Source: an uncultured Nitrososphaeraceae archaeon (GTDB lineage: Archaea; Thermoproteota; Nitrososphaeria; Nitrososphaerales; Nitrososphaeraceae). From it: a stretch of DNA of 64,000 bases. The notes under the pieces were generated by a model. It was not told where the DNA came from. It did no database searches and saw nothing but the letters and a program-made list of their open reading frames with translations. Both the position numbers and the translations under genes were made by a program. Positions within the stretch are counted from its first letter, which is position 1. Each line of letters opens with the position of its first letter. The DNA is taken from positions 96,001 to 160,000 of the forward strand of contig CAWGVG010000014.1 in assembly GCA_963825865.1 (NCBI GenBank), written 5' to 3'. This document shows, one piece after another, positions 22,420 through 53,873 of the stretch.

Positions 22420-22520
22420 TACTACCAAGATGGCTCAATTGCCCTTCGAATATACCTACTCCTAGGAATATCACCACGCTTATTGTCGATTGTATATATA
22501 ATTGATTTAGATAAGATTTT
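22420..22520 (-). pseudogene. Ribbon-helix-helix protein remnant, paralog of 52828-53028
   Basis: IDNKRGDIPRSRYIRRAIE versus IDNKSGDIPRSRYIRRAIE. Confidence 0.7.
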
Positions 22521-22714
22521 GCTAATACAAAGAACAGAGTGGAATATGCCTTAATTTGCAATGGTCAAGGAAAAGACAACATAATGTGTATTGCTAGCGT
22601 ATTTATTTAGATAATGAATAAAATAAGTAGAATTTTATTATATTCATTTGGCAATAATAAACGATACTATTATTAGGTAAGTGCATAACTTCTCCTCGTT
22701 TTATCTCCTCAACA

Positions 22715-22843
22715 ATTATGTTAAATGCGTCAGCATTAAATTACACTAAATAAGTCAGGACTCGATTATACTAAATAAATCAGTATTAACTTCCTCAAGT
22801 CAAATATATAGATGATATCATAATCTTTGATGACGAAATCTAG
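22715..22843 (+). promoter_or_regulatory. Cassette A promoter: three boxes at 25-bp spacing plus TATA-like element
   Basis: taaatgcgtcag 22722, taaataagtcag 22747, taaataaatcag 22772, then ctcaagtcaaatatatagatga; conserved in 4 copies. Confidence 0.75.
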
Positions 22844-23230
22844 ATGAACAACACAAGAAATCTAACAATAGCTGCTATATTAATAGCAGCAACATTAGTA
22901 GTAGGAGTAACGTTCGCAGCAACAACACAATCAGCATTTGCAGCGAGGAAAGGAGACAGAAATGAGAATGGTAATACAATTACCGAACAGAAATGCAAAC
23001 AATACGGCATAGTGAGTGGATTTGATAACACAGCAGAACAAGAATGTCAAAACGTGATATGTACTCACCCAACGAGCGATGGATCATGTGTAAGTGAGGG
23101 CAGCGCTACACCAAAAGTAAAACCAACACCACCAAAAGATGACGGCGACGAAGACAAAGATCAACAACACGACGACCAAAATCCACATAACGACGACCAA
23201 AAGAAAGACGACATGAGCAAATACTGGTAG
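22844..23230 (+). CDS. Secreted small protein, SGFDN/ICTHP family, copy A
   Basis: Signal peptide ending SAFA; GNTITEQKCKQYGIVSGFDNTAEQECQNVICTHPTSDGSCVSEG; acidic tail. Confidence 0.75.
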   Translation: MNNTRNLTIAAILIAATLVVGVTFAATTQSAFAARKGDRNENGNTITEQKCKQYGIVSGFDNTAEQECQNVICTHPTSDGSCVSEGSATPKVKPTPPKDDGDEDKDQQHDDQNPHNDDQKKDDMSKYW

Positions 23231-23270
23231 TCCTTTACTGCTACCACAACCTTTTTTTCTTTTTTGTTTC
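23226..23270 (+). terminator. Conserved GGTAG...CTACC hairpin plus poly-T (cassette A)
   Basis: Same motif after copies C and D. Confidence 0.65.
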
Positions 23271-23582
23271 TCAACAACAACAAGTACTACTAATAATACA
23301 AGCAACACAATATACTAGAGTTCACAAATTCAGACACAATTATTACAAAGACTATATTGCAATAATGAAGAATAAACCGACACTTGGCCGAGTATGTACC
23401 ATCCACAATAGAATAGATTTGACTTTTCATACGCGTGTTAAAAAATCTAAATAGTACATCTATTAGAGTAATGATCTTCATTATGCCACGGAATTTCAAA
23501 TTATAGATAGTTTATATGCTTCTCTTAGTCTATCTTGTTCAATAACTCTTCTAATCATTACATTTGAAAAGGAGCAAACTAG

Positions 23583-23897
23583 ATGGCTTTAAATGCAAAG
23601 CTGTTCTGTATCACTACAACAATAATGAGTCAGAATACCAATTATTCCAATGAAAAGAGGCAACAGCAACAACAGCAAGGATCAAGTCAATGGGCTGAAG
23701 TAATAGGACAAGTTTTTGATAAGATAACAGGCAAGAATATGTCAATGACTTATAACTTTGACAATCTGGTAATTGATATCCCTAGAGCGGAGGGTCCTGG
23801 TGGTCAAAGCATAGATAGCGCAAAATGGACAATTAATGGCAGGTTAATAATCACAACCGAAGCGCATAAAATAGGTAATGATGGTAACGGCAGCTAA
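23583..23897 (+). CDS. Conserved hypothetical protein
   Basis: Protein-like composition; overlaps the next ORF in operon fashion. Confidence 0.6.
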   Translation: MALNAKLFCITTTIMSQNTNYSNEKRQQQQQQGSSQWAEVIGQVFDKITGKNMSMTYNFDNLVIDIPRAEGPGGQSIDSAKWTINGRLIITTEAHKIGNDGNGS

Positions 23898-24318
23898 AGA
23901 TATGCTAGGAGACGATCACCTTCATATTGAAAAGGACGATCCAATAGCAGATTGGCTAGCTGGGTCTATGAGAGCTGCAATATCGGGTACAATCAAGATT
24001 CACATTGAAGATCAACCGGCAGTACAAATTGATGTTCATAAGGATATGATTAGCGTTAATCTTTTAGAGCCAGCAGTTTTCAAAATTCATGAGGATGAAA
24101 CAGGATTGTTTGATAAATTAAACACCGCAAAAGAATTTGCTCAGAAACTCAGTGAAAATGGATTAACTCTATCATTTCTTAGAAAAGGTAAAAAAGCTAT
24201 TATTTTGGGGAAAGAAGCCAAGCCGACGCTTTCAAAATTAATAACAAGAAGTGATGATATACAAATAAATAGCACAAAAGAATCTGCTAAACTTAAAACT
24301 GATTTAAAGGCTGATTGA
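23878..24318 (+). CDS. Conserved hypothetical protein
   Basis: 146-aa ORF coupled to the upstream gene. Confidence 0.6.
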   Translation: MMVTAAKDMLGDDHLHIEKDDPIADWLAGSMRAAISGTIKIHIEDQPAVQIDVHKDMISVNLLEPAVFKIHEDETGLFDKLNTAKEFAQKLSENGLTLSFLRKGKKAIILGKEAKPTLSKLITRSDDIQINSTKESAKLKTDLKAD

Positions 24319-24766
24319 ACATAATACATACATCACAAAGATAAGCCCATTGACCATCCAATGAAAAATTACATAATCATGGAAAGTTACATCAAAATGA
24401 TTTTATATTTTTAAATAGTTGATATTTTTGTTGGCACAGTTACATTTCACAACAGTGAGGTAAATCGTAACGTCCTATGTCACGTAAAGAATAAACTACA
24501 GGGACGGTCAAAAATTACTTCGAAGTCAAAGCCTTAGAGTAAATAACGATTTGACGCCACAACACTTTGAGAAATCTGAATTTGTTATTTTATACGCACT
24601 TCTCTTGCTAACTTCTTATTATGTTAAATAACTGTTGCTAGACAGTTTATCTGAGATAGAAAAAACGACAGGTGGGTGGTGGATTGACAAGAGTAACAAT
24701 TCAACCAAGATATGACTTTAGACAGTATAATGGTAAATGTCTTCCTAAATTTTAATAATATTCTAA

Positions 24767-25672
24767 TTGTACGATATGTCTAACATCATATATATGGACA
24801 CTAAAGTGGGATTTCATGTTTCAATTGCTGGTGGAATTTCAAATTCTGTAGATAATGCCTTAAAAATTGGTTGTAAAGCTTTTCAAATATTCAGTAGAAA
24901 TCCAAGGAGCTGGGCTGCTAAGTCACTTGAAGTAGAAGATGTAAAGAATTTTCAAATAAAATTGGTCAATAGCAAAATTCGTAGAAAGTCGGTATTTGTC
25001 CATATGCCATACCTGCCTAATTTATCAGCTCCTGATAGCATATTATACGAGAAATCAGTTAATCTTCTCAGAGACGAAATACAGAGATGCAGCAGGCTGG
25101 ATATCCCTTATCTTGTATTGCATCTGGGCAGTAATCTTGGAAAAGGATCAGATAATGGAATTAGTCAACTGGTTAAAGCCTGTAATTTTGCTTTTGACAA
25201 CTATTACAAATCATCTGAGGATCAAAGAGGTAGCAACTCAGTTACAATATTGCTTGAAAATAGTGCAGGCCAGAAAAATAGCATAGGCAGTAAGTTTGAA
25301 GAGATTGGAGTAATACTTGATAAATTAAACTCCTCTAAAAAATTCGGCATTTGCCTTGACACATGCCATGCATTTGCTGCAGGTTATGATTTACGAACAG
25401 AATATGGTGTAAATACAACTATAGATCAGTTTCACAATATAATAGGATTAAAGGAATTAAAAATGGTGCATCTAAATGATTCTAAAGGTAAAATAAACTC
25501 CCATCGTGATCGGCATGAACATATTGGACTTGGAGAAATGGGAGAGAAAGGATTCAGGGCACTATTTAAGCACGCGACTATCAGGAAGTTACCATTGATA
25601 ATGGAAACTCCTAACGATGAAAGAAGACATGACTCTGATAATTTGAAAGCTCTTTTAGAGCTTATTGCATAG
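24767..25672 (+). CDS. nfo: Endonuclease IV
   Basis: GFHVSIAGG, FQIFSRNPRSW, HMPYLPNL, LLENSAG, CLDTCHAFAAGYDL, HLNDSK...DRHEHIG, METP. Confidence 0.95.
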   Translation: MYDMSNIIYMDTKVGFHVSIAGGISNSVDNALKIGCKAFQIFSRNPRSWAAKSLEVEDVKNFQIKLVNSKIRRKSVFVHMPYLPNLSAPDSILYEKSVNLLRDEIQRCSRLDIPYLVLHLGSNLGKGSDNGISQLVKACNFAFDNYYKSSEDQRGSNSVTILLENSAGQKNSIGSKFEEIGVILDKLNSSKKFGICLDTCHAFAAGYDLRTEYGVNTTIDQFHNIIGLKELKMVHLNDSKGKINSHRDRHEHIGLGEMGEKGFRALFKHATIRKLPLIMETPNDERRHDSDNLKALLELIA

Positions 25673-25749
25673 CAGTAACAGAACAAGCATAAGATAGATT
25701 CATTTGGGTAAATTATTCTTAATTATCACTCGTTAGCTTTCCAGTTAAA

Positions 25750-25860
25750 GTATGCGATTCAAAAAGCATTATACAAGCCCATGGAGGTAGAATATGGGTT
25801 AAAACCAACGCTGAAGGCACAGGAGTTACGTTTGCATTTAGTATGCCATTAAATCAATGA
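25750..25860 (+). pseudogene. Histidine kinase HATPase C-terminal remnant
   Basis: KSIIQAHGGRIWVKTNAEGTGVTFAFSMP. Confidence 0.6.
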
Positions 25861-26439
25861 TAACTAAATTAATTAGAAAGAAGATGTGGTAGAAGCCTTG
25901 AATTTAAACAATTGCATCAACAAGATGATAGTATTATTGAGGTTGCAGTATTATTTGATTCACGATAATTCAATAACTAATACCTTATAATGGTATTGGA
26001 ATTTAAAAAAGAGATGTGACGAAATTTATTTGTGAAATTCACAGATAATGGAAATTTAAGGCAGTAGTATTCAGTTGAGGTAGATGATAAATTGGCAAAA
26101 GAAGACATTAGCAGAATTCATTCTATTTCACTCCACGTCATCTATTACGTTGCAATTTCTCCTTTACCTTTGTGTTGTTGTCGACAACTGTAATATTATC
26201 TTGTAAGATGGTTCATATGTATGTAATTTTAACTAACCACGACAAAGAAACCTGAATGCAATGGTGCCATGAGCTTTTTCAATATTATACTTGCAACAAA
26301 CACCTAACCTTTACTACTACTACTATCAAAGACCTACCTTTTGCCAGTTAGATGATATAGATCAAGTATTCGCAGAAAAATATTAATCAAATATAGAGAA
26401 GGTCTAGTAATCGAACTGCAAAATTATTATAAAATACTA

Positions 26440-27484
26440 AATCTCTTGTGTAATTAGAAGCTTAGAGCTATATTCCTCTTCACATAGGATATCTATCTGA
26501 CAAGCTCTTTGATGTCCTATAGCAAATTATGTAAGAAACCTTTGATATTCAGGTCATTTACCGGAGTAACTGTATCTGAATTTGAATCCATTTGTAACGA
26601 AATTGAACATAACTACGAAGAGCACGAAAGAAGACGTCTTCTATCAAGGACGAGAATACGGGATATAGGTGCTGGTAGACCATTTAAGCTTAAAGTTAAA
26701 GAAAGATTCGTTATGCTTCTAGTATACTACAGATTATACATTACATATACATTATCAGGATTTCTGTTTGACCTTGATCAAAGCAATGTTTGTAGAGATA
26801 TATCAATGATGGAACCACTTATCAAGGAGTGTATTCCATTGCCAAAGAAGATATACAAACGTACTAGGAGATTAAGAACTATAGATGAAGTAGAAGAGTA
26901 TTTCCTGGATTCAAGGCTTTCATAGACTCTACAGAACAAGAAATTCCAAGACCTAAGAACAAAAGAAGAAGGAAGAGTTACTATTCAGGTAGAAAGAAGA
27001 AACATACTGTCAAGACACAATTGATGGTAAACAAGTGAAGGATTGATACTGCATAAGACAGGTCACAGAAGTGGAAGAAAACATGATTATGACATTTACA
27101 AACACAATCATTCTATAACTCCATCACAAGTTGAAAACATAGTTAATCTTGGTTATCTTGGCATTGAAAAGGACTTTCCCACTGTAAAGTCTGTACTTGG
27201 TATCAAAAAGAAAAAGGGTACATTGCTTTCATGTGATGAAAGAACTTACAACAAGAATCATTCTAGGCTAAGGATCATAGTAGAACATACCATATGTAGA
27301 ATCAAAAAGTTTGGAATAATGGGTACTAAATTTAGAAACAGATTAAGGAAGTACAATAACGTATCTGATATAATATACAGGTCTCCTGAACTTCAGAGTT
27401 ATACAGTCTGACAGCATTTCAATCTAAGAAGACGGCTAAAACAAGTAGGGTGTTAGACTATAGCTCCTAATTACGCAAGAGATC
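26440..27484 (+). mobile_element. IS5-family (ISL2-like) insertion sequence, copy 2, inverted relative to copy 1
   Basis: Near-identical to 200-1244; TA flanks at 26438-26439 and 27485-27486. Confidence 0.9.
26509..27411 (+). pseudogene. Transposase with two compensating indels (near 26900 and 27033)
   Basis: Direct comparison with copy 1. Confidence 0.8.
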
Positions 27485-28139
27485 TACTACAAAGAAGGGA
27501 GTTCCAGTTATACTGGAGATTAAAAGTCGTATCGCTACCCATGATACGACTACAGCAAAAACAAATAGAGAAACACCTGGCTATTTTATCTCTTCTGTCC
27601 TTATTGCTTTGCTACAGGGTCGATCCACCCTTATAGATTCTAACATGGAAAAGCTGTAAAAACATATCATAGATTCCCTCACATTCTAAAAGGAAAAACT
27701 CATAGTTTCATGCATCATTTATACTCAAAATTCTGTATCAAGATTTTTAAAAGGATTTGCACATAATAACTTATTTACTAAAGAAATATCTCTTTTTTAC
27801 GCTCATGAATCAACGGACTATAATAGAACGAATCTATTGTCAATTCAAGAATCTTTGGTTAAAGTATATAATTACACAGACATGTTCTCTTGTTACAACA
27901 AGGACATTTGTTATTGCGTTGGACAATTTGACATCTTTTGTTATGTGTTTCACAAATTATTGTCCTTCTAGAATTCTCTAAATCTTCGCTTGCTATTTGC
28001 ATATAGTATGTGTTTGAACAGACAGAGGTTAATATAATGTGCTAGCTAATTTAGAGAAACCAGCTAAAAAACATCTACAAAATGTTGGATGTATTCATTT
28101 CTGCGTGTAAACTATGACTAGTTATGTTCTTGTGCGTGT

Positions 28140-29141
28140 TGCTTTGTTGCATGATTAATTATCTTGTAAGTGATACTTATTTGACCACTCACCATTTAGC
28201 TTGCTAGTATTAATTATTCTGGTATGGTTGACTGGCCTTGCTATAATGAATCACTAGTTAGGCGTGGTCAAGTACTCTTGGATTTTGATGTACTTGATCG
28301 ATGGGATCATGAATTATGTCAAATGAACCTTGGTAAGGTTGGTGAGCCCTACTGCTACCCAAATTCATTTATTCAGCTTCTAGGTTACATGAGAGCATAT
28401 TTCCATCTACCATATAGACAAACACAGGGTGTAGTCATAGCTCATGCAAGTAAAGAAGTATCAAACACACCACATTATAGTACCATTAATAGACGTATAA
28501 ACAGGCTAGAGATTAAAATCGATGAAAAATTAGGAAATGATATTGTCATTGCTTTAGACAGCACCGGCATTAAGGTCACTAATCGAGGGGAATGGATGCA
28601 CCACAAATGGCATGTCAGAAAAGGATATCTAAAGATACACATAGCAGTTGATATCGAGAAGAAAAGAATTGTATCTCTGGAGGTAACAAGTGAAGAGGTA
28701 CATGATGGTAAGATGCTAAAGAAGTTAGTAGACAATGCTTCTGAAAATAATAATCATGTGAAGGGTATATTAGCAGATGGTATGTACGACAGCAATAAGA
28801 ATTTTAGATACCTATCAAAGAACCACATTAAGCCTGGTATAAAGACAAGAAGTAATTCCAAGGTCAAGTCAACTAACTGTCATGCTAGGAATATGTCTGT
28901 AGTAAGACAACAAGCAAACCTCAAAAAATGGAAGCGTAGCGTGAGCTATGGGTACAGGTGGATAGCAGAAACAGCATTCTCTTCCATTAAAAGAACATTT
29001 GGTGAACATGTAACAGCTAGAAAGTTTCCTCACATGGTAAAAGAGATCCTCCTAAAGGCAGTCTGTATAACATGTTCAATCGAAATAACCTCACTAACGG
29101 TTTGCATAACCTAAAATCCTAATGAATTATGCAACAGAGCA
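28140..29141 (+). mobile_element. IS5-family (ISH1-like) insertion sequence, copy 2 (diverged)
   Basis: Inverted repeats tgctttgttgcatgatt / aattatgcaacagagca; homologous to 4123-5124. Confidence 0.88.
28224..29114 (+). CDS. IS5-family transposase, frameshift near C-terminus
   Basis: Same DDE motifs as 4207-5076. Confidence 0.88.
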   Translation: MVDWPCYNESLVRRGQVLLDFDVLDRWDHELCQMNLGKVGEPYCYPNSFIQLLGYMRAYFHLPYRQTQGVVIAHASKEVSNTPHYSTINRRINRLEIKIDEKLGNDIVIALDSTGIKVTNRGEWMHHKWHVRKGYLKIHIAVDIEKKRIVSLEVTSEEVHDGKMLKKLVDNASENNNHVKGILADGMYDSNKNFRYLSKNHIKPGIKTRSNSKVKSTNCHARNMSVVRQQANLKKWKRSVSYGYRWIAETAFSSIKRTFGEHVTARKFPHMVKEILLKAVCITCSIEITSLTVCIT

Positions 29142-29352
29142 TTCATTTCGATAAATGTGATAATGTATATAGTAATTATTATTCGTAAAGTTTGAAAAAT
29201 AAAGCTACATCTATGTTGCTTAATGACCTAGATCCAGTGACGATTTGTCGCTTTATTATTACCATACTGGATAAAAGATTTCAAAAATTGTTTACGCTAT
29301 TTATGAGATATGGTTGTTTAATCATGACTGAATGACTATGAAAGACTCGGAT

Positions 29353-29502
29353 ATGATGAGCTGTCCTATTGTAGGTTGTAAAGGACATTTAACAAAAAAC
29401 TATATGCTCAAACATCTGATGGCCGCCGACACAATCGTACAGATAACTGATGAATTAATCCGTAGAGAAGAAATTGAAGAACAACAACAACAACACAAAT
29501 GA
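29353..29502 (+). CDS. 49-aa zinc-finger-like microprotein (not in ORF track)
   Basis: MMSCPIVGCKGHLTKNYMLKHLM... Confidence 0.4.
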   Translation: MMSCPIVGCKGHLTKNYMLKHLMAADTIVQITDELIRREEIEEQQQQHK

Positions 29503-29800
29503 TTATTTTTATTGATACAATAAATGCAAAATTACCCGTCGTAAAAGTACATACATGCCACAGAGCATATGTTTTTTAATTAAATTTTGATTAATTGGTA
29601 GTACACTTTATACAGGAAAAGCTATTTTCCAGACGGTCTTTCCTAATAAGCTTGACATTATCAAGGGCAGGAATCGGCTAGACTGTACAAAAAAGATAGA
29701 CGAAAATGTACAATGGCCATTAAAAATTCAATAGATATGGAGCATAAAAAATTTATTAAATATTCCTTTATATATTCGTGTTTTTTATTATCTATAATGC

Positions 29801-31528
29801 TTGACACTTTTTCAAGGTAATAGCAGAGAAAAGACTGAGGTCTTGTATGGATTAGATAACATAATGAATAAAACGTTACAATTTTTATCAAAAGCCTGTA
29901 AAATAGATTCTTGTGGCGACTATAAAGCTGTTCCCGCAATTGTTGAAGTTAAAGCGTACAAGCAATTATTATCAGAAGTTAAAAGTAGAGGTATCAAAGT
30001 AAGATATATTACGGACGTTACCAAAGATAATCTCAATTATTGCAAAGAGCTCATGAATTTTGTCGACGACATTCGCCATTTAGATGGAATTAAAGCAAAC
30101 TTTTCTATCAGTGAAGCAGAATATCTTGCTTCTACAACTACAACACTGTCACCAGCACCACATATTATCTATAGTAATGTTAAAGATATTGTAAAGCAGC
30201 AGGAGTACGTCTTTGAAAGTTTTTGGAACAAGGCAGTTCCAGCTGAACAGAAAATTAGAGAAATTGAAGAAGGGATAGAACCTGAATTTTTTGAAGTTAT
30301 TGCAGAACGCAAAAAAATAAGTCAGATTTTTCTTGATCTGGCAAAATCTGCAAAGAATGAGGCCTTATTCTTATTTCCAAATGATAAAGCACTAGTAAGG
30401 GCAGACAGAGTAGGAGTCATTGACCACTTAATAAAAGCATCACAAAAAGAAAATGGTGCAAATATAAAAATTATTTGTCCTTTATCTGAAAAGAATTCTG
30501 ATATTGTAAAACGAATATCTGAACAAGCTTCATCTATCAGAATTCTCAATGGCAATGATTCTTTATATGGTATGTATATAGTTGATGAGGAGAAGCTTTT
30601 TAGGGTTGAGATGAGAGAACCACAGGCTGAAACCTTTATAGAAGCAATTGGTTTTGCTCTTTATTCTAATAGAAAAAGTACAGTGGAATCATTCAAATCA
30701 GTATTTGAATTGCTTTGGAATGAACGTATATTAAATGAAGAATTAAAAAAGGTACATAAGACTCAAAATGAGTTTATTAAAATGCAGCAAGAATTCATAA
30801 ATATAGCAAGTCATGAGATGAAGACTCCTACCCAAGCTATTTTAGGATATTCTGAGTTATTCCACCGCCATCCTGAAAGAAAAGATGAAATTATACAAGC
30901 AATCTCTAGAAATGCCATAAGACTTCAAAAATTAACACAAGATATATTAGATGTTACAAAAATTGAAAGCAACACATTAAAACTAAGCAAAGAGCAATTC
31001 AATCTAAGCGAACAAATAAGAAATTTAATAAATGATGTGAGTAAAAGTCAAATAAACGTTTCAGATAGCAGTAATACTGCCATAAAAATATTATTTGAGT
31101 CCAAAGCAAAAGAGGAAGGAGAAGGAAAACAAGATATTATCATAGAAGCCGATAAAGCTAGAATATATCAGGTTATTTCAAACCTCTTAAGCAATGCCAT
31201 TAAGTTTACTGAGATGGCAGGAGATTCTGTGTCAATTGCTGCAATAGCGCATAATGAGAATAATCAAGTTATTGTTTGTGTTAAAGATAGAGGCAGTGGT
31301 ATAGATTCTGAAATATTGCCAAGGCTATTTACAAAGTTTGCGACAAAATCCGAAAGAGGGACAGGACTTGGCTTATTCATATCAAAAAGTATTGTAGAAG
31401 CTCATGGTGGGAGAATATGGGCTGAAAATAATGTTGATAATGGCAAAGGAGCTACTTTTTACTTTAGTCTTCCATTAATCAAAAAACAAGAACAGCCAAA
31501 ATTAGAGAAAAGAACTAGCACAAAGTAA
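29801..31528 (+). CDS. Soluble sensor histidine kinase (HisKA + HATPase_c) with duplicated N-terminal sensor domains
   Basis: EFINIASHEMKTP, NLLSNAIKF, DRGSGI, GTGLGLFISK; no TM segment. Confidence 0.92.
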   Translation: MTLFQGNSREKTEVLYGLDNIMNKTLQFLSKACKIDSCGDYKAVPAIVEVKAYKQLLSEVKSRGIKVRYITDVTKDNLNYCKELMNFVDDIRHLDGIKANFSISEAEYLASTTTTLSPAPHIIYSNVKDIVKQQEYVFESFWNKAVPAEQKIREIEEGIEPEFFEVIAERKKISQIFLDLAKSAKNEALFLFPNDKALVRADRVGVIDHLIKASQKENGANIKIICPLSEKNSDIVKRISEQASSIRILNGNDSLYGMYIVDEEKLFRVEMREPQAETFIEAIGFALYSNRKSTVESFKSVFELLWNERILNEELKKVHKTQNEFIKMQQEFINIASHEMKTPTQAILGYSELFHRHPERKDEIIQAISRNAIRLQKLTQDILDVTKIESNTLKLSKEQFNLSEQIRNLINDVSKSQINVSDSSNTAIKILFESKAKEEGEGKQDIIIEADKARIYQVISNLLSNAIKFTEMAGDSVSIAAIAHNENNQVIVCVKDRGSGIDSEILPRLFTKFATKSERGTGLGLFISKSIVEAHGGRIWAENNVDNGKGATFYFSLPLIKKQEQPKLEKRTSTK

Positions 31529-31715
31529 CAATAACAATGAATAATAATAAAAACTTGAGAAACAACCTCAAGGAGTGAGTGCAAACAAACTGGGAATAAA
31601 GATGACACCATATGCGATATCAAATTAGGCAACAACCCCTATCAATCAAACAGTTATTATATATAATGGCAGACAAATTAAATAAGTACATTCATAGATT
31701 TTTATCAATAACATA

Positions 31716-32003
31716 ATGAAACAAAGAGTTGAACTTGTCAGGATAAATCTAAACAAAGAACTTTGGAAGATAGATTACACTACAGGTCTTGCTAAGCACA
31801 TACGAGAAAATATAACAGTTGATAATGATAATGAAAATTCTGCTAAAGGTCAAAATAATAATAATAAAGACGGTAATAGAGAAGGCCTAATAGGATATAA
31901 TGGAGATATAACACAATATATTGAAGAAAAAGGATACACATGGGAACAATTAGACGAAGATTCAATAAAATTTAAACATGATGGCGAACTTACTCAAGAA
32001 TAG
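31716..32003 (+). CDS. Hypothetical protein
   Basis: 95-aa ATG ORF with soluble composition. Confidence 0.5.
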   Translation: MKQRVELVRINLNKELWKIDYTTGLAKHIRENITVDNDNENSAKGQNNNNKDGNREGLIGYNGDITQYIEEKGYTWEQLDEDSIKFKHDGELTQE

Positions 32004-42326: not shown

Positions 42327-42345
42327 GCAAAAGTGAGAATAAAAA

Positions 42346-42685: not shown

Positions 42686-42816
42686 CAAATTTATCTTCTT
42701 TAAGTCCCGTGCAAATACTATAATATTTTCTTTTTTTGCTTTGCTAGAATCATCGACTATAATGTTTATCAGAAATTCGAACCATAATAAAACAAAATAG
42801 GTGAAAATGAAAAGAT

Positions 42817-44154: not shown

Positions 44155-44387
44155 GGCAAAAACGAGCCACTATCTGCAGTGATTTATCTCTTTATTTCCA
44201 AATCTACATTTAACATAACGGACTCATATAACAATCAAGCAAGAATAATACACCACATTGCCATGCTGCCAGAAAAATAGCCCTGATGGTGCTCCATTAT
44301 ATCACTAGTGATTTGAGCACAAAAATGTTGATAAAATAGCCGTCAGGGATGGAGGGTCGGGCTAATATACTGCTATTTCTAAGATCT

Positions 44388-44813
44388 TCAAGTATCTGAA
44401 GGCATTATTTTGTTAATTTGATTTACCAAATCTTCATTTTCAATCGGCTTTGCGAGAAAATGCTCTTTGTCTATTTTGTCTCCTTTACAAAATGATTCTT
44501 TTCGAATTCCCTCATAATACATCTCACTTGCTGTTAAAAAACATACTTTTACTTTATTGTCTATCTCTTTCATTTTTTGATATAAATGAAAGCCATCCAT
44601 TTCTGGCATTTTTATATCTAATAACACCAAGTCATACAAGCCAGCTTTAAAGCTCTTCAGTGCTATAGTAGGATCTTCAAACGAATTGGCTTCAAATCCG
44701 TTATCTTCCAAAACCATCTTTAGCACTGTACAAAGATCAGGTTCATCATCTACTATTAAGACTCTCTTCTTATTATTATAATTATTAATCTTATAATTTT
44801 TTATTCTAGTCAT
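44388..44813 (-). CDS. Response regulator receiver
   Basis: LIVDDEPD, LLDIKMPEMDG, FLTA, KP. Confidence 0.92.
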   Translation of the reverse strand: MTRIKNYKINNYNNKKRVLIVDDEPDLCTVLKMVLEDNGFEANSFEDPTIALKSFKAGLYDLVLLDIKMPEMDGFHLYQKMKEIDNKVKVCFLTASEMYYEGIRKESFCKGDKIDKEHFLAKPIENEDLVNQINKIMPSDT

Positions 44814-44831
44814 GATTGATTTAGTACACCT

Positions 44832-45990
44832 TCACACTTGATTGTTATTGTGGGCGCTGTTTGTAATTGGCAAGGTAAAATAAAAAACAGATCCTTTCTT
44901 TACACCGTAAATATTATTTTCAGCCCATATCTTTCCACCATGGGCTTCTACAATATTTATAGAAATAAACAATCCTAATCCTGTTCCTTGAAAAGATTTA
45001 GTAGCAAACTTTGTAAATAGTTTAGGAAAAATTTCTGGATCTATTCCTTGACCTGTATCACTTACAGTAATAACAACAGCTTTTTGTATATCATCTTCTT
45101 CCTCATCCTTCTTTTGTACCTCTATAGATATTACCCCTCCCTCTTTCTTGGTGAATTTAATGGCATTATTTAATAGATTAGAAACAACCTGAGTAATTCT
45201 TTGCCTATCTGCGTCTACTATTATTACATCTTCATTGTTAATAGATTCAAACATTAATTTTATATTTATATTATCTTTTGTAATTTGATTATTAAATTGT
45301 CTCACTGTATTGGATATTACATCAATAACATTGAATTGTTCTTTATTTAATTTAAGTGAATGGCTCTCTATTTGTGTGATATCTAAAATATCTGATGAAA
45401 GACGTTTTAACCTTTCTGCACTCCTAGCAATCATATCTAATGAATTATCTAGCTCCTGTCCTTTGATGTTTTCCCTTTCGTGAACGAATAATTCCAACCG
45501 TACTAAGTATTGGTTGTATGGGAGTTCGCAGTTCATGAGCTGCTACATTAATAAACTCTTTCTGCATCTTGTCATGTACTTTAAGCTGTTCATTGGCTAA
45601 TTCAAGTTGCATGTTTGCTTCTTTTACTTGTTCATATAATTCAGCTTGTCTCCAAAGGCTCTCAAAAATAGAAACATAAGATAAAACTCCTGGTCTGCTA
45701 TTAGAATAGGTTGATAAACCTATTGCTTCGAAGAAAGTTGTTTTTGAATCATCCTTCAATTCCATCACTAAAGACGTTTTTCTATCTACTACTAAGATAG
45801 TAGCTTTAGTACCTGAAGATTCCTCAATATATCTAATGTCGATATTGCCACTATGATACTGATTCTTTCTCATTTTCAGCTGTTTTACTGAATGTTCAGT
45901 CACATTATGCGCAGGCATCAAAATTCTAACTACCAATGATAATTCCAAAATCCAACTTTTCCATAAACATTGTATATAAGCGGAGACCAA
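44832..45990 (-). pseudogene. Histidine kinase, N-terminally truncated and frameshifted near 45470
   Basis: EFINVAAHELRTP in one frame; NLLNNAIKF, DTGQGI, GTGLGLF in the next. Confidence 0.85.
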
Positions 45991-46161
45991 GATATTTGCA
46001 ATGAATCAAGAATCTGTGTTTGTGATTCTAAATAGTTTTCCTTATTTATTAGAATCTGAAATTGGTTCATACTTGAACGCTTGTTCGGGTAATCTGATAC
46101 AGAGAATAGGTCTCCAAACCAAAAGTTTATCAGACTAAAAACACTATACAACTCGTAAAAA

Positions 46162-46761
46162 TTGCTTGATAATAAAAAAGGAGAGCATGAAATGGTTTTA
46201 AATAAAAAAGTGGTATATGGCATAATAATAATTGTAGTTGTTGGATTTGCGGCTGTTTGGTTTGGTTTTAAGTTTGTTTTTGGTCTTTATAACCCGTTTT
46301 ATGTCGTTGCAAGTGGAAGCATGATACCAAATCTCAATGTTGGAGATTTGGTAATTGTCAGAAATAACACCATCAGTAGTAGTATAAATGACAATAACAA
46401 TAACAATAACAACCCCTATTCATTTAATAACCTAAAGGTCGGTGACATCATAATTTTCAAATCACCTGGCACAGATAATAATGGAGAACACCTAACCATT
46501 GTACATAGAATCGCAAAGATCGCAATAGATAAAAGAGATGGAGGTAGCAGAGTTATAAGAACAAAAGGTGATGCCAATCCCAGTTCAATTCCATTTCTTG
46601 ACTATCCTTTAAGAGAAGCAAATTACATTGGCAAAGTGGTATATGTTATTCCCAAAGTGGGATTGATAACTCAACTGATTAGACCACCGATAAACTACAT
46701 CATTATTGGATTTACAGTAATCGGCATGGTCTACTATCTCAGAAAAGCAACAAAAGGCTAA
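46162..46761 (+). CDS. Signal peptidase I (S26, Sec11-type)
   Basis: VASGSMIPNL.VGD, IVHRI, TKGDAN. Confidence 0.9.
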   Translation: MLDNKKGEHEMVLNKKVVYGIIIIVVVGFAAVWFGFKFVFGLYNPFYVVASGSMIPNLNVGDLVIVRNNTISSSINDNNNNNNNPYSFNNLKVGDIIIFKSPGTDNNGEHLTIVHRIAKIAIDKRDGGSRVIRTKGDANPSSIPFLDYPLREANYIGKVVYVIPKVGLITQLIRPPINYIIIGFTVIGMVYYLRKATKG

Positions 46762-47659
46762 AACGAAAAAGGTACTGCAGTAGAGGTTTGGACTTTAGTA
46801 GATGCTAAAAACAGAGTGGAAAAAGGAACGGCTATTGTTATTGATCAATTAAACGTAATACCAGATTATCGGCCATTGGTTTGACCTAAAATCTAACAAA
46901 ACCAGGATTATTTGCCTCAAGTAAATATGCAATAATTAGCTTGGACCAAGGTTCACATTTGGCTTTCCGAAATCATTCAGATGATGATTGTGAAAATGCT
47001 TTTGGGAAGTTACGAATCACAAATCTTTGGGTATGTGATAAATAATTAAAATGCTTACTAAAATAAATTGTCATAGTTCAGAATTTTTTAATCTGCTGTT
47101 CAACAATATTAAGGCTCAAAAGGAACGCTAGCGAAGATAGTATCTTCAAAGACCTAGCAGTTAATACAGCGGTGCGGTAGTACTTGTAGCTGAAGTACTA
47201 TACAAATACAAAGAAAGCTTTGCAGACAGAATAATAGACAATTACACGGAAATGATTGATGAGCTTTAAAATTCATTTTATAAAATGGACTATCACATAA
47301 TTAAAAAGGTTTTTTTAAAGTAAAGGAAATTGCCTAATATAAAGGGGTTACAAAAGATACATAACATCCTAGTGCATTATTGTATAAATTGTATGTCTTT
47401 GTTTACATAACAACAATAATAATAAGCAAAAGGATGGAATCAGACCCAAGTTTAACCCATTGTTATATCATTTCAATATATGGCTTGTAGATAAACGGGT
47501 CTATAAAACGGAAAAATAGGAGAATTAAATATGATCATCAACACAATACAACATCAATTTTTAATCGAAATTCTGCTGGTTTTGTGAAACCATATCCTAT
47601 TAATAGAGTAATAGTATTATAAATGTTACTAGTAATATATATCATACTTATTTTTCTTT

Positions 47660-47890
47660 AGCATGCAGAGACATCATTGGTTTAAAAACACATGATGCTT
47701 TGAATGCAATTAGCAGCTGGTTGGATAAATGTAGGCAATTAAAGCGAATAGGTTCAAACTGGCAATAACAAAATATATGTTAAAAGAGTTCAATTAGAAA
47801 TGGCCGTAGACCTCTAAAGTTTGATGCATTGAAGCTGAAAAATAAGGTACTATATGATTTGTTAAATGATAAAAAAATTGAAGTATTAAG
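47660..47890 (+). pseudogene. PriX-like primase subunit C-terminal remnant
   Basis: ALNAISSWLDKCRQLKR...SIRNGRRPLKFDALKLKNKVLYDLL. Confidence 0.5.
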
Positions 47891-48078
47891 AGTAAATAAG
47901 TGAGCACAACAAGGATAAATTACAACCCAAACTGATGGCTCTTAAAAAAATAGATGATCTAAATTATGCAATCAGGAATGGCTCATACAAAGTTAATTAT
48001 ACTGAACTTGGTTCGGCTTGCTCATAGGCCTATCATAGACTTGGAATGTGTATAAACTACAGGCACACACTTTGTCCA

Positions 48079-49442
48079 TTATGTTTTAGTCGTATTAATT
48101 ATCCTATTATCTCTAAAGATATTATCCATTGATTTTGAATCATTATCAAACACTATTGCTCTAGCGGTGGTAGTATTGTTCAATACTATTGTATTTGAGT
48201 ATAATATATTTCCATGAGCACCTGTCTTGATACTTGTAGCATTTGTAGAATTGATAATAGAATTTCGATATACCTTATTAGCCGAGGAGGCATTTAGTAA
48301 AGTAATTCCAAGATTACTATTTGAGATAGAATTATTGTATATTTCATTATTATGTGATTGTGAAACAAGGATAGCTCTACTCTGGTCGTGCAAATGATTG
48401 TCCCTGGCAATAGAGTTAGTCATATTTCTGCTAAATGCTATCCCAGACCCTGTATTATTATAAACTACATTTTTCTCAATAAGTATATTGTAGCAATCCA
48501 ATGAACAGATTATAGCTGTACCATTGTTGCCATATACAGTATTATTTCTAATTACCATATCATGAGTTCCTGTATGCGGATCTATGCCATAATGACCCAT
48601 ATCGTGAACTTTATTGTTTTCAATGACCATGCCCCCTACACCAACTGAATAAAAGCCAAAATATAGGTGGTGTATATCATTATTCCTTATTACGCTACCA
48701 TGCCCAGCAAGATGATAATGAAGCCCAGATGTTCCTGAACCCCATCCTCCTTCATATCCTAAATATGCAATCTCTGAGTTTGTGATATTTGTAGTACCTG
48801 TTCCTAGTCTTTCTACTCTAATATATGGTCTAGGAGCTCCTACATGAACTATTTTTCCGGAACTTTCTCTTAATCCATGACTTTCAACATAATCATTTGT
48901 TTCTGGATTCCAGGAAGTTACTTTTACTGAATCTATCTTCATACTACCATAGACATGTATGCCATATGCAAGAGTGTTGCCATCTGAAATTATTTTTAGC
49001 CATTTGGTATCTTTGGAATCGATATTTAATGTAGATCCAGGTTGTATGGTCACATTTGCATTTAACAACCATACTCCATATTATTATTATTATTATCGGG
49101 ATCTTTGTACAAAGCCTTATTTTCAGCTCCTCCGAGCTGTTCATATATATCAGTTAGGCTTACAGGAGATTTGCATGACACCGTGATTGTGAGAGTTGCT
49201 GCATCATAGGCTATACACCCTGATTCCGGTAATCCATATGCTGTTTGTATTTGCTCATTTGATGGTATTGAAAAACTTGGAAAGGCAAATGTCGAAAGTA
49301 TCAGTACAATAGCAGTAGTAATACCTGCGTAGCGTACTATAATCGAATGTTTGGCAATATATGTGTAGTAAATTTTTTTTCTAATTCTATTCGTTCCCGT
49401 TTGAATATTGTTACTTGAAAGGCTATGATGGGGATGAAACAA
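48079..49442 (-). CDS. Secreted right-handed parallel beta-helix protein (NosD/AlgG-like), frameshift near 49080
   Basis: NSEIAYLGY, HHLYFGFYS, YGIDPHTGTHD, IICSLDC; signal-like N-terminus. Confidence 0.8.
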
Positions 49443-49821
49443 GCTAACTTTGATAATTAGAAAATACAGACATTTACACTTTACTACATTTTTGAAGTTT
49501 TTACATAGTAGTCAAAACATATCAAATGAAGACAATATTCAAAGGATCAATAACTGAATTATGCGGCCACTTGATCTTTTGATTGCTCCTCCTTCCTTTT
49601 CCAAAGGTTTTGTTTTTTTTTGTCAAATCCTGGCGTTTTTTTGGCGCCATATTAGGGCTATTATTATTGTTAGCTTTTCATATGCTATATCATAGATAGA
49701 TGGATAATAAGTAACATATATGCTATCTAAAAATCAACTATGAGATGAAAAATGATGATGCGTTGCTTTTTAACATAATTTTTATAATTTATGAAGGAAT
49801 GAATAAGAACCAAAACTAAGA

Positions 49822-50130
49822 ATGATAGGGAATGCTCTGAGTAATAATGATAATGATATGACCGCTGATAACGATGATAATGAATTCACATATCTATTCA
49901 ATGGCCAAAGTATAGATGGCTGGCATATGGCAGGTCCAGGTAAATTCGTATTTCTTGAAGATGATAAATCATTACAATCAGAAGGACGAATGGGATTACT
50001 ATGGTATGCAAAAAAGAAATACAACGACTTTGTACTAAAGATTGATTGGAAAGTTAATCGTAGAAATGACAATTCCGGCGTATTTATCAGATTCTCAGAT
50101 CCAGATAATGATCCTTGGATTGCATTTTAG
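49822..50130 (+). pseudogene. DUF1080 (3-keto-disaccharide hydrolase) N-terminal fragment
   Basis: LFNGQSIDGW, GLLWY..KYNDFVLK.DWK, NSGVFIR. Confidence 0.75.
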
Positions 50131-50202
50131 AAAAAAATTTATACAAAAAATTGAATAATTGTCTTTAACCCTTCATCACTGGCGGCGCAATCACTACTAC
50201 TA

Positions 50203-50430
50203 CTAGTATGCGTGATATTCTTGCTTATGCTGCCTTAATTCTTTTGATGTCCAAAACAGATTATCACATTTTTCGCATTTCCAATGGTGTATGTTTGGCT
50301 GCTCATATGTACCAGCGTAAGTTTCTCTAGTGTTTTTATAGAATCCTGTTTTATTATTATAGTTAACGTAAGTATAGTTGAGTTTGTACTTATTAAAACC
50401 TCTACGCTCATCTTGTGATATTACTTTCAT
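50203..50430 (-). CDS. C2H2 zinc-finger protein
   Basis: WKCEKCDNLFWTSKELRQHKQEYH. Confidence 0.7.
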   Translation of the reverse strand: MKVISQDERRGFNKYKLNYTYVNYNNKTGFYKNTRETYAGTYEQPNIHHWKCEKCDNLFWTSKELRQHKQEYHAY

Positions 50431-50435
50431 TTTGG

Positions 50436-50684
50436 CTACCTTTGTATAATATTATCACTATAGCAGATTTTATAATCATGAATGAAGCTTTGTTTTATAT
50501 CATCAGTAAGGTCCTCAAGTTTTTGACTATCTTTTGATTCACTTTTATTATCATTGCTACTGCTACTTTTTTCAATTCCAAGCGAATCTAGTTCATTTAT
50601 CCACCAACTAACCTTTTTAGACTGTTCATTATCATTGACACCGTTGGCGAGCTTTTTGTTATTTATCATTTTTTTCTCACTCAC
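50436..50684 (-). CDS. Hypothetical protein
   Basis: Tightly spaced with neighbouring ORFs on the same strand. Confidence 0.4.
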   Translation of the reverse strand: MSEKKMINNKKLANGVNDNEQSKKVSWWINELDSLGIEKSSSSNDNKSESKDSQKLEDLTDDIKQSFIHDYKICYSDNIIQR

Positions 50685-51184
50685 TCTAATTATGGGGATG
50701 TGGATTGTCCTGCCGCTTGAATCTGGCTAGGATACCAGCCATTACTATCGTTAGAGTAGTTGGTATTACAAGTAATATTAGTATTATCAATTGTTGTTTG
50801 TTTGTTTTCATTTTCATTGCTATCATTTTTCTCCTTTTTGTCACTTAATCTAATAGAGATATACACTCCATCTAAATCCACTCTGCGCGGTAGCCAATTC
50901 TATAGCCATAAACAAAATTTATGTGAATGTCTAAAACCAAAATGGTCATTAAAGAACCCACCATTAAGGGAATTGGAACATGTAGCAGCGGCGTGACGTG
51001 CCACTTTGCTCTCTATATATATTATATATACACATCGTTGTACATAGGCATTCCGAAACAACAAACTGACTGTTGATACCATTATACTAACAATAGTTAT
51101 ACATTTTATTTATTATCATTAGTTGTGATGAATGATACCATCAATTGTTAGATGAATTAATTACACCCCATTAGATATATTCAA

Positions 51185-51289
51185 TATTTAAGCGAAATAA
51201 ATAAGCACTAAATTATATTAAATAAATCAGCATTAACTTACTCAAGTCAAATATACAGATGACATCATACTGATAGTGACGAAATCTAC
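51185..51289 (+). promoter_or_regulatory. Cassette B promoter: two boxes at 25-bp spacing plus TATA-like element
   Basis: gaaataaataag 51194, taaataaatcag 51219, ctcaagtcaaatatacagatgac. Confidence 0.7.
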
Positions 51290-51550
51290 ATGAACAACAC
51301 AACAACTCTAGCAATAGTTGCTATCTTAATCGCAGCAACACTAGTAGTAGGAGGAGTAACAACATTCGCAGCACCAACAACAACGCGAGCTGAAACTGAG
51401 TCAGAGAATAGCTCTACAATATGTATAAACGATCAACCATGCCAGAGTACAGTGTAGAATTCAAATACTACTGATTCACAAAACATAAATCACAATAGAA
51501 TCCATATGTCTATAACATGTGTAAACGATGAGCCATGCAAGACTAGCTGA
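51290..51550 (+). pseudogene. Cassette B secreted protein with family signal peptide and two CxNDxPC motifs; internal TAG at 51455 (not in ORF track)
   Basis: MNNTTTLAIVAILIAATLVVGG...ICINDQPCQSTV*...TCVNDEPCKTS*. Confidence 0.65.
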
Positions 51551-51795
51551 TAACAAAGATTAAAGAAAAAGACAATGGAAATGGTGACGGTAATAATAAT
51601 ACTACGGCCCAGCGTCATCTGGACCATTGGAAAGTTATCGTCAAATACTAATCAATCACCAACAGGATAAACAAAAAATATATTCACCGCTTAAAAGTGG
51701 AGTAGATGCAGTAACATACATTATAATTATAGATCTGTTCATTTTAGCCAAGAATGTAGTTAAATATACGATCTGTGGCTATACTCCACTGCTTT

Positions 51796-51990
51796 TTAGG
51801 GAAAAGGTAGAATGAAAGGTGTTTTATCAGGTTGTATAGAATACTGAAGACCTTGATGCACGCAAGTTGGATCAATAATACTATCACATCTGTACTCAAA
51901 AGCACTTGCTTGTTGTTGCAAAAATACCATAGTAAAGGTTCCTCCTCCCATTAGTATTACTGTTGTTGCTGCTGCCAGGGATACTAGCAT
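51796..51990 (-). CDS. Small secreted peptide with one Cys pair and TPFILPFP tail
   Basis: Hydrophobic leader ending QASA, CDSIIDPTC. Confidence 0.55.
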   Translation of the reverse strand: MLVSLAAATTVILMGGGTFTMVFLQQQASAFEYRCDSIIDPTCVHQGLQYSIQPDKTPFILPFP

Positions 51991-52279
51991 TATTATTGTG
52001 ATAATAATATGGTCCTCTCTAACATTATACCATTATTAGAATATATGGGATTAGGTAATTATGATTGTTTTTTCTTTACTAAGTTATTTCTAAAATATCT
52101 GCTATTATTATTATAAATGCGTGTGTATTTCACTTGAGATTTGCGATGAATATTATTATTATTTTCATGTTGAGTTTTCAATTTTAATAATATATTATTT
52201 TCTTATTGTAACCTTTTCAAAACATTGTATTACTATTAATAGATATATAAATAAGTTCTAATCGTTTAGTAACGTTAAT

Positions 52280-52420
52280 AATTATACCAAATAAGTCTGC
52301 AACAAATTAGAATAAATAAATCATAATTACATTATACTAAATAAGTCAGTAATAACAAACAGTAGTAACTACCTCAAGTCAAATATATAGACGACATTGT
52401 ACTGATTGATGACGAATATT
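52280..52420 (+). promoter_or_regulatory. Cassette C promoter: three boxes at 25-bp spacing plus TATA-like element
   Basis: caaataagtctg 52288, taaataaatcat 52313, taaataagtcag 52338, ctcaagtcaaatatatagacgac. Confidence 0.72.
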
Positions 52421-52693
52421 ATGACCAACACAAGAACTCTAGCAATAGTTGCTGTCTTAACAGCGGCAACATTAGTAGTAGGAGTAACGTTCGCAGCAAC
52501 ATCAGCACACTCTGCATTTGCTTACAAGAAAAGAGGAGACAAGGAAAGAGATAATGGTGACGGTAACACAATTACCGCGCAGATAAATGCACAAAAAGGG
52601 TATGTAAGTGGGTATGATAACTCACTAGAACAAGAAGCATCAAATGTTATCTGCACTCATCCGCATGACGAGTGTGTAAGTGAAGGCGACTAG
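52421..52693 (+). CDS. Secreted small protein, SGFDN/ICTHP family, copy C
   Basis: MTNTRTLAIVAVLTAATLVVG...SAFA; GNTITAQINAQKGYVSGYDNSLEQEASNVICTHPHDECVSEG. Confidence 0.75.
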   Translation: MTNTRTLAIVAVLTAATLVVGVTFAATSAHSAFAYKKRGDKERDNGDGNTITAQINAQKGYVSGYDNSLEQEASNVICTHPHDECVSEGD

Positions 52694-52724
52694 AATAGCA
52701 GCTGTAGTTGCTACTACGTGGTAA

Positions 52725-52772
52725 GGTAGTTCTTTATTACTACTACCATAGCCTTTTTTCTTTTTTTGTTTC
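52725..52772 (+). terminator. Conserved hairpin plus poly-T (cassette C)
   Basis: ggtagt...actacc followed by ccttttttctttttttg. Confidence 0.65.
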
Positions 52773-52827
52773 TACACAAAATAAAAACTTTCTGCAAATA
52801 GCCTTTTGTTGTATTTGACTTAACACA

Positions 52828-53028
52828 CTATCTGTTTTTACTGCTACTACTAGCAATGTATCCTTCAATCGCCCTCCGAATATACCTACTCCTAGGAATA
52901 TCTCCACTCTTATTATCGATTTTCTGTATTATTGATTTAGGTAAAGTGATTCCTAATTTTACAGTCATATCCATTGTAGCAGTGGCGATAGTACTACTTG
53001 TCATACTAGTATAATGTACTACACACAT
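52828..53028 (-). CDS. Ribbon-helix-helix (CopG/Arc-like) protein
   Basis: TVKLGITLPKSIIQKIDNKSGDIPRSRYIRRAIEGY. Confidence 0.75.
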   Translation of the reverse strand: MCVVHYTSMTSSTIATATMDMTVKLGITLPKSIIQKIDNKSGDIPRSRYIRRAIEGYIASSSSKNR

Positions 53029-53279
53029 AGCTAAAAGGTTTTTGATAGCAGATTGTTTAAGATTATTATGGTATTATATTGTGTATATTGATTAACTTTT
53101 TTTTGTATGCAGTAGAACAATATATCTATTAAATTAAAACGCACAATTGCTTCAGAATTACACATGAATACAATTATTTTCTAAAATTACAATCTTTATA
53201 CTCTATTACATAGTAGTAACAGATTGCCATAAAACACCAATAATAGCTAAATGAATAACTACACTTGATTTTATAACCT

Positions 53280-53386
53280 GAATAGTTATACGAAATAAGT
53301 CAGCATTATATCATATTAAATAAATCAGCATTAACTTACTCAAGTAAAATATACAGATGACATTGTAATGCTTGTGACGAAAATTT
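53280..53386 (+). promoter_or_regulatory. Cassette D promoter: two boxes at 25-bp spacing plus TATA-like element
   Basis: gaaataagtcag 53292, taaataaatcag 53317, ctcaagtaaaatatacagatgac. Confidence 0.72.
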
Positions 53387-53832
53387 ATGAACAACACAAA
53401 ATCACTAGCAATAGTTGCTGTCTTAACGGCAGCAACATTAGTAGTAGGACTAACAGTCGCAGCAACGGCAACACCATCGGCATTTGCTGGTGGGAATAAA
53501 GAAAGACAGGACAAATACATGAAAGGCGAACAAGATGGTTACAAGAAAGTAAAACAAGACTCCTATAAGAAAAATACCTACAAGAAAGGAAAACAAACTA
53601 ATGGAAATGATGGCGCTAAGGCGAGTGGTAATACACTTACCGTCCAGGCAGCCAAACAACACGGCATAGTGAGTGGATTTGATAACACACTAGAACAAGA
53701 AGCTCAAAACGTGATATGTACCTCATCCAAGCTCAACCTGTGTAAGTGAAGGCAGCGAAACTAACGCGACTGACACAACTGACAACAACAATGGTGACGC
53801 AGCGGCGACGGCCCGGGCCACTGACAAGGTAG
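53387..53832 (+). CDS. Secreted small protein, SGFDN/ICTHP family, copy D (frameshift near 53723; end uncertain)
   Basis: Signal ending SAFA; (Q)DxYKK repeats; GNTLTVQAAKQHGIVSGFDNTLEQEAQNVICT, then HPSSTCVSEG in the shifted frame. Confidence 0.75.
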
Positions 53833-53873
53833 TTCTTTTACAACTACTACCGCAACCTTTTTTTCTTTTTTTC
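53828..53873 (+). terminator. Conserved hairpin plus poly-T (cassette D)
   Basis: ggtagt...actacc, caacctttttttctttttttc. Confidence 0.65.

Follow-up and report, generated by a model that had tools for sequence, protein, structure and literature searches.

What is the function of a small, secreted-type protein that recurs, each time behind the same upstream DNA, within a single stretch of an archaeal genome? The question arises from 64,000 nucleotides of an uncultured Nitrososphaeraceae archaeon (genome G000, contig C14, positions 96001-160000; hereafter the window), in which a first-pass annotation described a four-copy cassette. The four open reading frames (ORFs) with a common leader, starting at 22844, 51290, 52421 and 53387 and called copies A to D here, are present, as is the roughly 100 bp of upstream DNA common to the copies, which includes a near-invariant block around AAGTCAAATATAYAGA. 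The cassette itself extends well beyond four copies: genome-wide there are 64 loci for the conserved core of these proteins and 71 for the promoter. We propose that, within one clade of soil Nitrososphaeraceae, a single promoter class turns on a regulon whose products leave the cell by the Sec route, and that one member family of this regulon would have been amplified in this genome to about 60 loci by ragged segmental duplication. In our judgment, co-regulation, export and selection are all very likely for these proteins. We are evenly divided over the further step, suggested by analogy with chaplins and curli, that single strand-turn-strand units assemble into a disulfide-braced fibre or layer displaying tails.

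A promoter shared across genera

The promoter consists of YAGCA-type direct repeats (boxes), set in 12-13 bp steps directly upstream of a B recognition element (BRE) and a CAAATATA TATA box, which is non-canonical. Relative to the TATA anchor, a box stands at -30 in 65 of the 71 loci, at -55 in 38 and at -43 in 14, and when 69 distinct upstream regions are autocorrelated, the peaks fall at lag 25 (z 16.8 relative to shuffles) and at lag 13 (z 9.3). The 25-bp phasing first described for the cassette thus stands for copies A and D and for the upstream regions as a set, but not for copy C, in which the spacing is 13-14 bp. A palindromic box, TRCTR-N7-YAGYA, was weak in the position matrix and was dropped in favor of direct repeats, which fit better. 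At most loci the ATG follows 34-47 nt past the anchor. In archaeal activator-dependent promoters, elements upstream of the BRE are activating, and by that analogy the phased boxes may be an upstream activating sequence.

A promoter matrix finds 74 sites in this genome scoring at least 18 and 71 scoring at least 24, the scores being bimodally distributed; rebuilt from the relatives' sites, it finds 70 at 22 or above, while the reversed control gives none above 18. These promoters are spread over 26 contigs, 42 of the 71 lying less than 5 kb from another. A core follows within 620 nt at 48 of them, 24 of which encode an intact two-Cys core as assembled; the other 23 precede different secreted-type proteins or remnants. 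Counted from the protein side, an iterated core profile gives 66 matches that merge into the 64 loci, 47 of which have a TATA anchor within 520 nt.

Mean identity among the loci of this genome is 0.74 from -100 to +18, 0.84 in the leader and 0.77 in the core, and falls to 0.55 in both the -260 to -130 region and the tails, as against 0.51 for random DNA. Because -12 to +18 was used to select loci, conservation of that part within the genome is partly circular, and a scan across genera therefore serves as the independent test. The comparison set comprised 150 other genomes of the family Nitrososphaeraceae, with the genus of the window represented by G000 alone. A 27-nt pattern built from G000 and the genomes of distant homologues (three design genomes) occurs at 47 sites in 28 of the 150, compared with 2 matches for the reversed control. 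It is present in 7/7, 5/5, 5/7, 3/4 and 2/2 genomes of five genera and in 0/87 genomes of five well-sampled others, counts that come from non-independent kin and in which absence may reflect divergence. An ORF with a hydrophobic N-terminus, starting at +33 to +56, follows 36 of the 47 sites (26 of 34 outside the three design genomes); the remaining 11 comprise 2 borderline cases, 5 with a cut or broken leader, 1 at a contig edge and 3 with none. The distant core homologues in other genera carry the same promoter. Judged from these sequence comparisons, the promoter marks a conserved secretion regulon that goes beyond plain recent duplication, the simpler account that the first-pass annotation had held open. 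In five further genomes, three weak protein matches have at most diverged promoter-like DNA, which we treat as a lead only.

Two side observations concern the promoter in relatives. In further genera, this promoter or a diverged form of it precedes other secreted Gln/Asn/Cys hairpin-like families (L056, L059, L072, L077, L079, L083, L086-L090); L077 resembles the mature part of copy B, and these families may form one superfamily with the core. At ten promoter sites (L057, L069-L075, L084, L085; nine genomes, genera g3, g6 and g8), an in-frame ACG at +33 to +44 heads a signal-peptide ORF, in the place that ATG takes in other members; no in-frame ATG, GTG or TTG follows before +65, and in three there is none to +110. 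These are candidates for conserved ACG initiation, or C-to-U editing, and many are orthologues, so that they do not represent ten independent events.

The predicted exported proteins

A basic n-region and a hydrophobic stretch make up the leader, together with an AxA that is invariant in 79 homologues; this pattern fits Sec export and cleavage by signal peptidase I, which we infer from the residues. What follows the common AxA site had been described as unrelated between copies, and is instead a K/D/G/N-rich linker of variable length. The core, of about 43 residues, has both Cys9 and Cys26 in 51 of 183 distinct sequences, neither in 129 and a single one in 3. Across the same 183 cores charge alternates by position, the outside being basic on strand 1 and acidic on strand 2, and at positions left free by the search pattern the putative inner face is 1-14% charged and the outer up to 78%. 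Among 24 intact copies (276 non-independent pairs), pS is 0.42 and pN 0.20, for a corrected dN/dS of about 0.38; the core is under purifying selection.

An AlphaFold2 model of P0125, built with 60 sequences, pairs strands 53-59 and 74-80 in the register predicted by Cys9 and Cys26, at a low confidence (predicted local distance difference test [pLDDT] about 60-64) that does not distinguish a hairpin from a beta-arch. Homologous cores behind the promoter in genera g7, g10 and g14 align with the hairpin gap-free at 28-40% identity; in the 150 family genomes, the core profile gave weak matches in 3, and in 5 after these were added. The family is multi-copy elsewhere as well, with 12 matches in G060 and 5 in G006. 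We suggest that, once the signal peptide is cut, the core would form a strand-turn-strand unit with one uncharged face of Gln, Asn, Thr and small residues and one or two disulfides and, being too small to fold alone, would stack with sister copies into a cross-beta-like fibre or a surface layer. The first-pass annotation had already called these proteins subunits; assembly of that kind is what we, too, would infer. A four-copy complex prediction scored 0.02 in two runs in which the controls were also unfolded, and is used neither way.

Within the genus, the core contains an invariant Cys-Thr-His-Pro..Cys motif. Ammonia-oxidizing archaea (AOA) rely on copper enzymes, and secreted-type products as small and as constant in their Cys/His motif as these could be diffusible effectors: metal-binding (copper, for example), signalling or antimicrobial peptides. 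However, the His and Pro are not kept in the g7, g10 and g14 homologues, conservation has a two-residue periodicity over 30 residues rather than the form of a ligand cluster, no modifying enzyme is present among the 31 window ORFs scanned, and the large pilin-like tails described below suit surface display better. We consider an effector role unlikely.

Variable tails

A profile search of 1.84 billion proteins returned 182 clusters at 50% identity. In the best 150 of these the core is nearly always single and N-terminal, with one matched stretch in 144; P0252, among the other six, appears to be a repeat protein unrelated to the family. The 98 tails of at least 40 residues include a helical four-Cys group (29) and a beta group (24) with prealbumin-like pilin domains; of 39 proteins scanned, 2 have a SpaA_2 match that passes the cut-off and 1 (P0243) a collagen match, and further tails are low-complexity stalks or variable domains behind a Pro/Thr stalk. 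Some singleton tails may be mistranslations arising from assembly indels. The commonest tail, the helical one, is modeled with a pLDDT above 90 in P0125 (AlphaFold2) and has no Foldseek match; its best structural hit, with a Z of 5.5, is a death domain. A saposin-like fold, suggested by the Cys spacing, was set aside after fold searches, in which the core was barely tested, listed no saposin. Seven of 24 intact members, by contrast, have 13 or fewer residues past the last Cys, and all g7, g10 and g14 members are short forms. Variant architectures also occur: P0267 has two tandem repeats without Cys, and P0262 is permuted, with the Cys loop ahead of the hairpin.

A C-terminus of the type PF(I/T/D)LP(L/I)PFP recurs on many small secreted proteins behind the promoter (L057, L061, L069-L071, L074, L075, L080, L082, L084) and on P0255. 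In this genome the PFxLPFP-type motif marks about 13 ORFs (19 pattern matches, 4 in the control), some fused to a degenerate core. Our literature search found nothing on the motif, which from its position is possibly an undescribed sorting signal.

In the assembly we favor, short members would be the scaffold, while long members would co-assemble with them and display interchangeable tails (a pilin-like prealbumin fold, collagen, four-Cys helical domains, low-complexity stalks). The same anatomy could belong to a non-polymerising anchor or sorting tag, in which the core joins a protein of the S-layer or another part of the envelope, by completing one of its sheets or through a disulfide, and has no task but to fix passengers to the cell surface. 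A single N-terminal core ahead of a stalk and variable tails is what such a tag would look like, some members also end in the PFxLPFP motif, and the core does not fold alone. Yet the many intact core-only members would have nothing to display, and a tandem Cys-less repeat such as that of P0267 exists. We regard an anchor as possible, though we doubt it.

The copies in the window

The elements of the four copies, with their immediate neighbors, are as follows.

22431..22517, minus strand: remnant of a ribbon-helix-helix (RHH) gene, without a start codon, divergent from copy A
22729..22814, plus strand: copy A promoter; three boxes at a 25-bp period (22729, 22754, 22779), then the BRE/TATA block, anchor 22797
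22844..23230, plus strand: copy A ORF, 128 aa; putative signal peptide at residues 1-33
23226..23258, plus strand: copy A terminator-like hairpin and T run
51202..51261, plus strand: copy B promoter; boxes at 51202 and 51226, anchor 51244
51290..51550, plus strand: copy B ORF; shared leader and a different mature part (two Cys-paired repeats)
51796..51990, minus strand: small secreted-type ORF with the C-terminus PFILPFP
52345..52393, plus strand: copy C promoter; the 13-14 bp box spacing variant, anchor 52376
52421..52693, plus strand: copy C ORF, 90 aa, a short form without a tail; signal peptide, K/D linker, core at 52559-52687
52725..52759, plus strand: copy C terminator-like hairpin and T run
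52831..52968, minus strand: RHH gene, convergent with C and divergent from D; one of 17 genome copies
53299..53359, plus strand: copy D promoter; boxes at 53299 and 53324, anchor 53342
53387..53749, plus strand: copy D ORF as assembled, 120 aa; leader, expanded K/D/Y linker, core
53828..53864, plus strand: copy D terminator-like hairpin and T run

Copy A, whose intact orthologue is P0119, has its core at 22967-23101 with an extra cross-strand Cys pair, and a Pro- and Asp/Lys-rich tail. Copy B has an in-frame TAG at 51455 where a paralogue on contig C47 has TCG; the C47 and C29 paralogues are open. The ORF at 51796..51990 is probably a regulon associate, given a C-terminal motif common to core-bearing and promoter-linked proteins. 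The core ascribed to A, C and D is present in all three, except that in D a +1 frameshift near 53722 places its 'HP..CVSEG' end in another frame. That extra base recurs at the same motif in several paralogues and is absent from the RNA contigs of two runs, and P0109 is an intact orthologue; the frameshift is probably an assembly error. The GGTAG..CTACC/poly-T hairpins are where they had been placed, at 23226, 52725 and 53828, but a terminator pattern follows only 14 of the 64 core loci.

Elsewhere in the window we note DDE transposase genes (26509-29114), a signal-peptidase-like gene 4.5 kb before copy B (46162-46761), urea transporter and urease genes (59249-63775), and three genes in two pieces: a beta-propeller (19631-20759), a beta-helix (48079-49442) and urease alpha (61999-63775).

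Transcription and regulation

A small part of the C-D stretch is present in twenty RNA runs. In four runs from four studies, RNA contigs extend over the coding portions of both copies with at least 85% likeness, and the contigs of two studies end at 52706, between the stop of copy C and its hairpin; this indicates that the family is transcribed in soil relatives. Depth differences were not used to rank genes, and uncovered stretches are uninformative. Together with a promoter conserved across genera and purifying selection on the core, these contigs bear out the original description of a co-regulated, expanding and diversifying secreted family. Upstream of copy B, short minus-strand ORFs at 50194-50982 are also covered by RNA contigs, whose nominal depth is very high in one run; other runs have some as well. 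That stretch has 2-7 genome copies and no Rfam match, and is possibly an abundant small RNA or a small-protein mRNA.

The first-pass annotation assigned the family its own regulator, and the divergent RHH gene beside D and the start-less remnant beside A do exist. The gene product matches Pfam RHH_3 with an E of 3e-4, just under the cut-off. An RHH protein binding the phased boxes would be compatible with any function of the exported proteins, and 9 of the 17 RHH copies are upstream and divergent within 700 nt of a promoter, against a null mean of 0.08. But most of the linked pairs are homologous in the intergenic DNA that separates RHH gene and cassette (about 78-95%), and since the pairs point to one juxtaposition copied as a block, the linkage is not independent evidence. 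About 62 of the 71 promoters are without such a neighbor, and across 18 same-family relatives RHH genes occur in 4 of 8 promoter-bearing and 3 of 10 promoter-less genomes, in a single-protein query for which some genomes were incomplete. With 14 TFB-domain loci in the genome, an alternative transcription factor B (TFB), a candidate specificity factor for this promoter, or an unlinked activator is no less plausible, and we now think a dedicated RHH regulator improbable.

Duplication and assembly quality

The assembly (4.98 Mb, 62 contigs, 35.5% GC, 82% complete) must be read with its errors in mind. All four essential genes tested (rpoB, rpoA1, ileS and EF-2) are split by frameshifts, from which we estimate about 1 indel per kilobase. 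Because these genes are frameshifted, and because copy D's extra base is absent from RNA contigs, broken copies of the family are not countable as pseudogenes, an interpretation we therefore dropped; anything else concluded from broken genes in this genome needs rechecking. A search for related loci in other genome contigs found none, and homologues of the window family carry the labels Nitrososphaeraceae or Nitrososphaerota.

Duplication is pervasive here. The genome has 656 multi-copy groups, among them transposase groups with as many as 76 copies, and the core family is the third largest ORF cluster (44), behind kinase-domain (103) and transposase-like (76) clusters, labels given from reading the sequences. 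Within the family, the duplicated blocks measure 0.2-1.7 kb and end raggedly, and BLASTN coverage is maximal on promoter and leader. A check for an element of the miniature inverted-repeat transposable element (MITE) type met the same ragged ends and variable lengths, in a search confined to coverage. The available text of a study of the largest Nitrososphaerales genomes describes intensive duplication of newly originated families (PMC7603488).

Against this background the expansion might be near-neutral, with one or two copies that matter and the rest decaying passengers of a strong promoter-plus-leader; besides the duplication just described, half of the loci look broken. Several results oppose this: promoter and core keep their identity while the more distal upstream DNA and the tails approach random sequence, pN is lower than pS, the multi-copy state of the family recurs in other genera, and apparent breakage is inflated by assembly indels. 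A near-neutral origin appears to us very improbable.

What the family may build

Several points weigh against a fibre or layer. The core alone did not fold (AlphaFold2, 22 sequences, pLDDT 48.6), several of its invariant positions were fixed by the search pattern, and a one-faced hairpin would suit an anchor bound to some other protein of the envelope just as well. The dN/dS of the core is moderate and comes from related pairs, and only half of the promoter-plus-core loci (24/48) are intact as assembled. The RNA contigs are pooled over paralogues and relatives, come from runs chosen for containing the C-D stretch, and do not distinguish paralogue, strand or level. The 31 window ORFs scanned include no nucleator, chaperone or secretion gene of the curli or Fap kind.

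With these reservations, we suspect that the family most likely builds an undescribed surface or matrix layer displaying varied tip domains, which may serve in adhesion. A more ambitious version, and a rather doubtful one, would have a modular functional amyloid in which each subunit is a single rung braced by disulfides. Dozens of genes scattered over the genome would encode the subunits, the fibre would display interchangeable adhesin tails, one promoter class would control the whole envelope programme (possibly read by an alternative TFB, in the manner of a sigma factor), and ACG initiation would hold down the output of some members.

Soil Nitrososphaeraceae are major nitrifiers and biofilm formers, and the family is a specific candidate for a matrix protein. 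A study of AOA biofilms shows the biofilms, and its text names no such matrix protein; its supplements may list members as hypothetical (PMC12448741). The 27-nt signature marks a secretion regulon across many genera and permits a direct test of a TFB paralogue as specificity factor, the 43-residue core peptide is short enough for synthesis and testing, and the family is a concrete product of large-scale duplication in these genomes. What is new here is the cross-genus promoter, the anatomy of the core, the test of the RHH gene and the candidate ACG starts in relatives.

Comparison with known systems

The first-pass annotation recognized no named system, and our searches agree: core and full proteins have no meaningful match in Pfam, NCBIfam or PDB sequences, the core profile none among sequences of solved structures, and the window none in Rfam. 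The ESM Atlas holds only unnamed Nitrososphaerota clusters for the family, and we found no paper uniting its features in a search to which subscription papers and supplements were closed. The available text on Nitrososphaerales duplication has the same background and names no such family or promoter (PMC7603488).

Anchor-plus-passenger surface families include the SLH-domain proteins and the BclA-type collagen adhesins of Bacillus. They likewise join one conserved module to many passengers, collagen among them (as in P0243), but there is no sequence match, and here many members are passenger-less and one promoter is common to all.

The Gln/Asn ladder of curli points inward. Curli CsgA and Pseudomonas FapC resemble our low-confidence core model in a strand-turn-strand unit with Gln/Asn, which in CsgA is a motif with conserved Gln, Asn, Gly and Ser, as the accessible part of one paper describes it (PMC6242892). 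Those proteins have several imperfect repeats per chain, whereas here there is one disulfide-braced unit per chain; their genes lie with an assembly operon, whereas ours are dispersed with none seen among the 31 window ORFs scanned, and there is no Pfam match. The same source, in the portion available, describes the Methanospirillum sheath protein MspA as amyloid-like, of 40.6 kDa, with internal repeats, a signal peptide, Cys, paralogues and no operon (PMC6242892). Being archaeal, with a signal peptide, Cys and multiple non-operon paralogues, MspA is similar in these respects, and is set apart by its size and internal repeats.

The Streptomyces chaplins ChpA-H, which with the curli-type units and MspA are the nearest parallels to the way the family would work, are similar in having short and long forms, a Cys pair and co-assembly, according to the text available (PMC5618241), although assembly in our family is conjectural. 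The short forms here do have the chaplin-like combination of a putatively cleaved signal peptide and one small two-Cys domain, but the chaplin domain PF03777 matches neither the window proteins nor 16 cores. The chaplin core is hydrophobic and ours Gln/Asn-rich and charge-patterned; long chaplins carry a second domain and a sortase signal, and ours, as judged by inspecting and clustering the tails, diverse ones; there are eight chaplin genes and about 60 loci here. Because the chaplin sequence test and the curli/Fap repeat test both failed, the family is filed under neither. It and its promoter regulon are uncharacterised, and they probably represent a new variant of secreted, self-assembling surface proteins.

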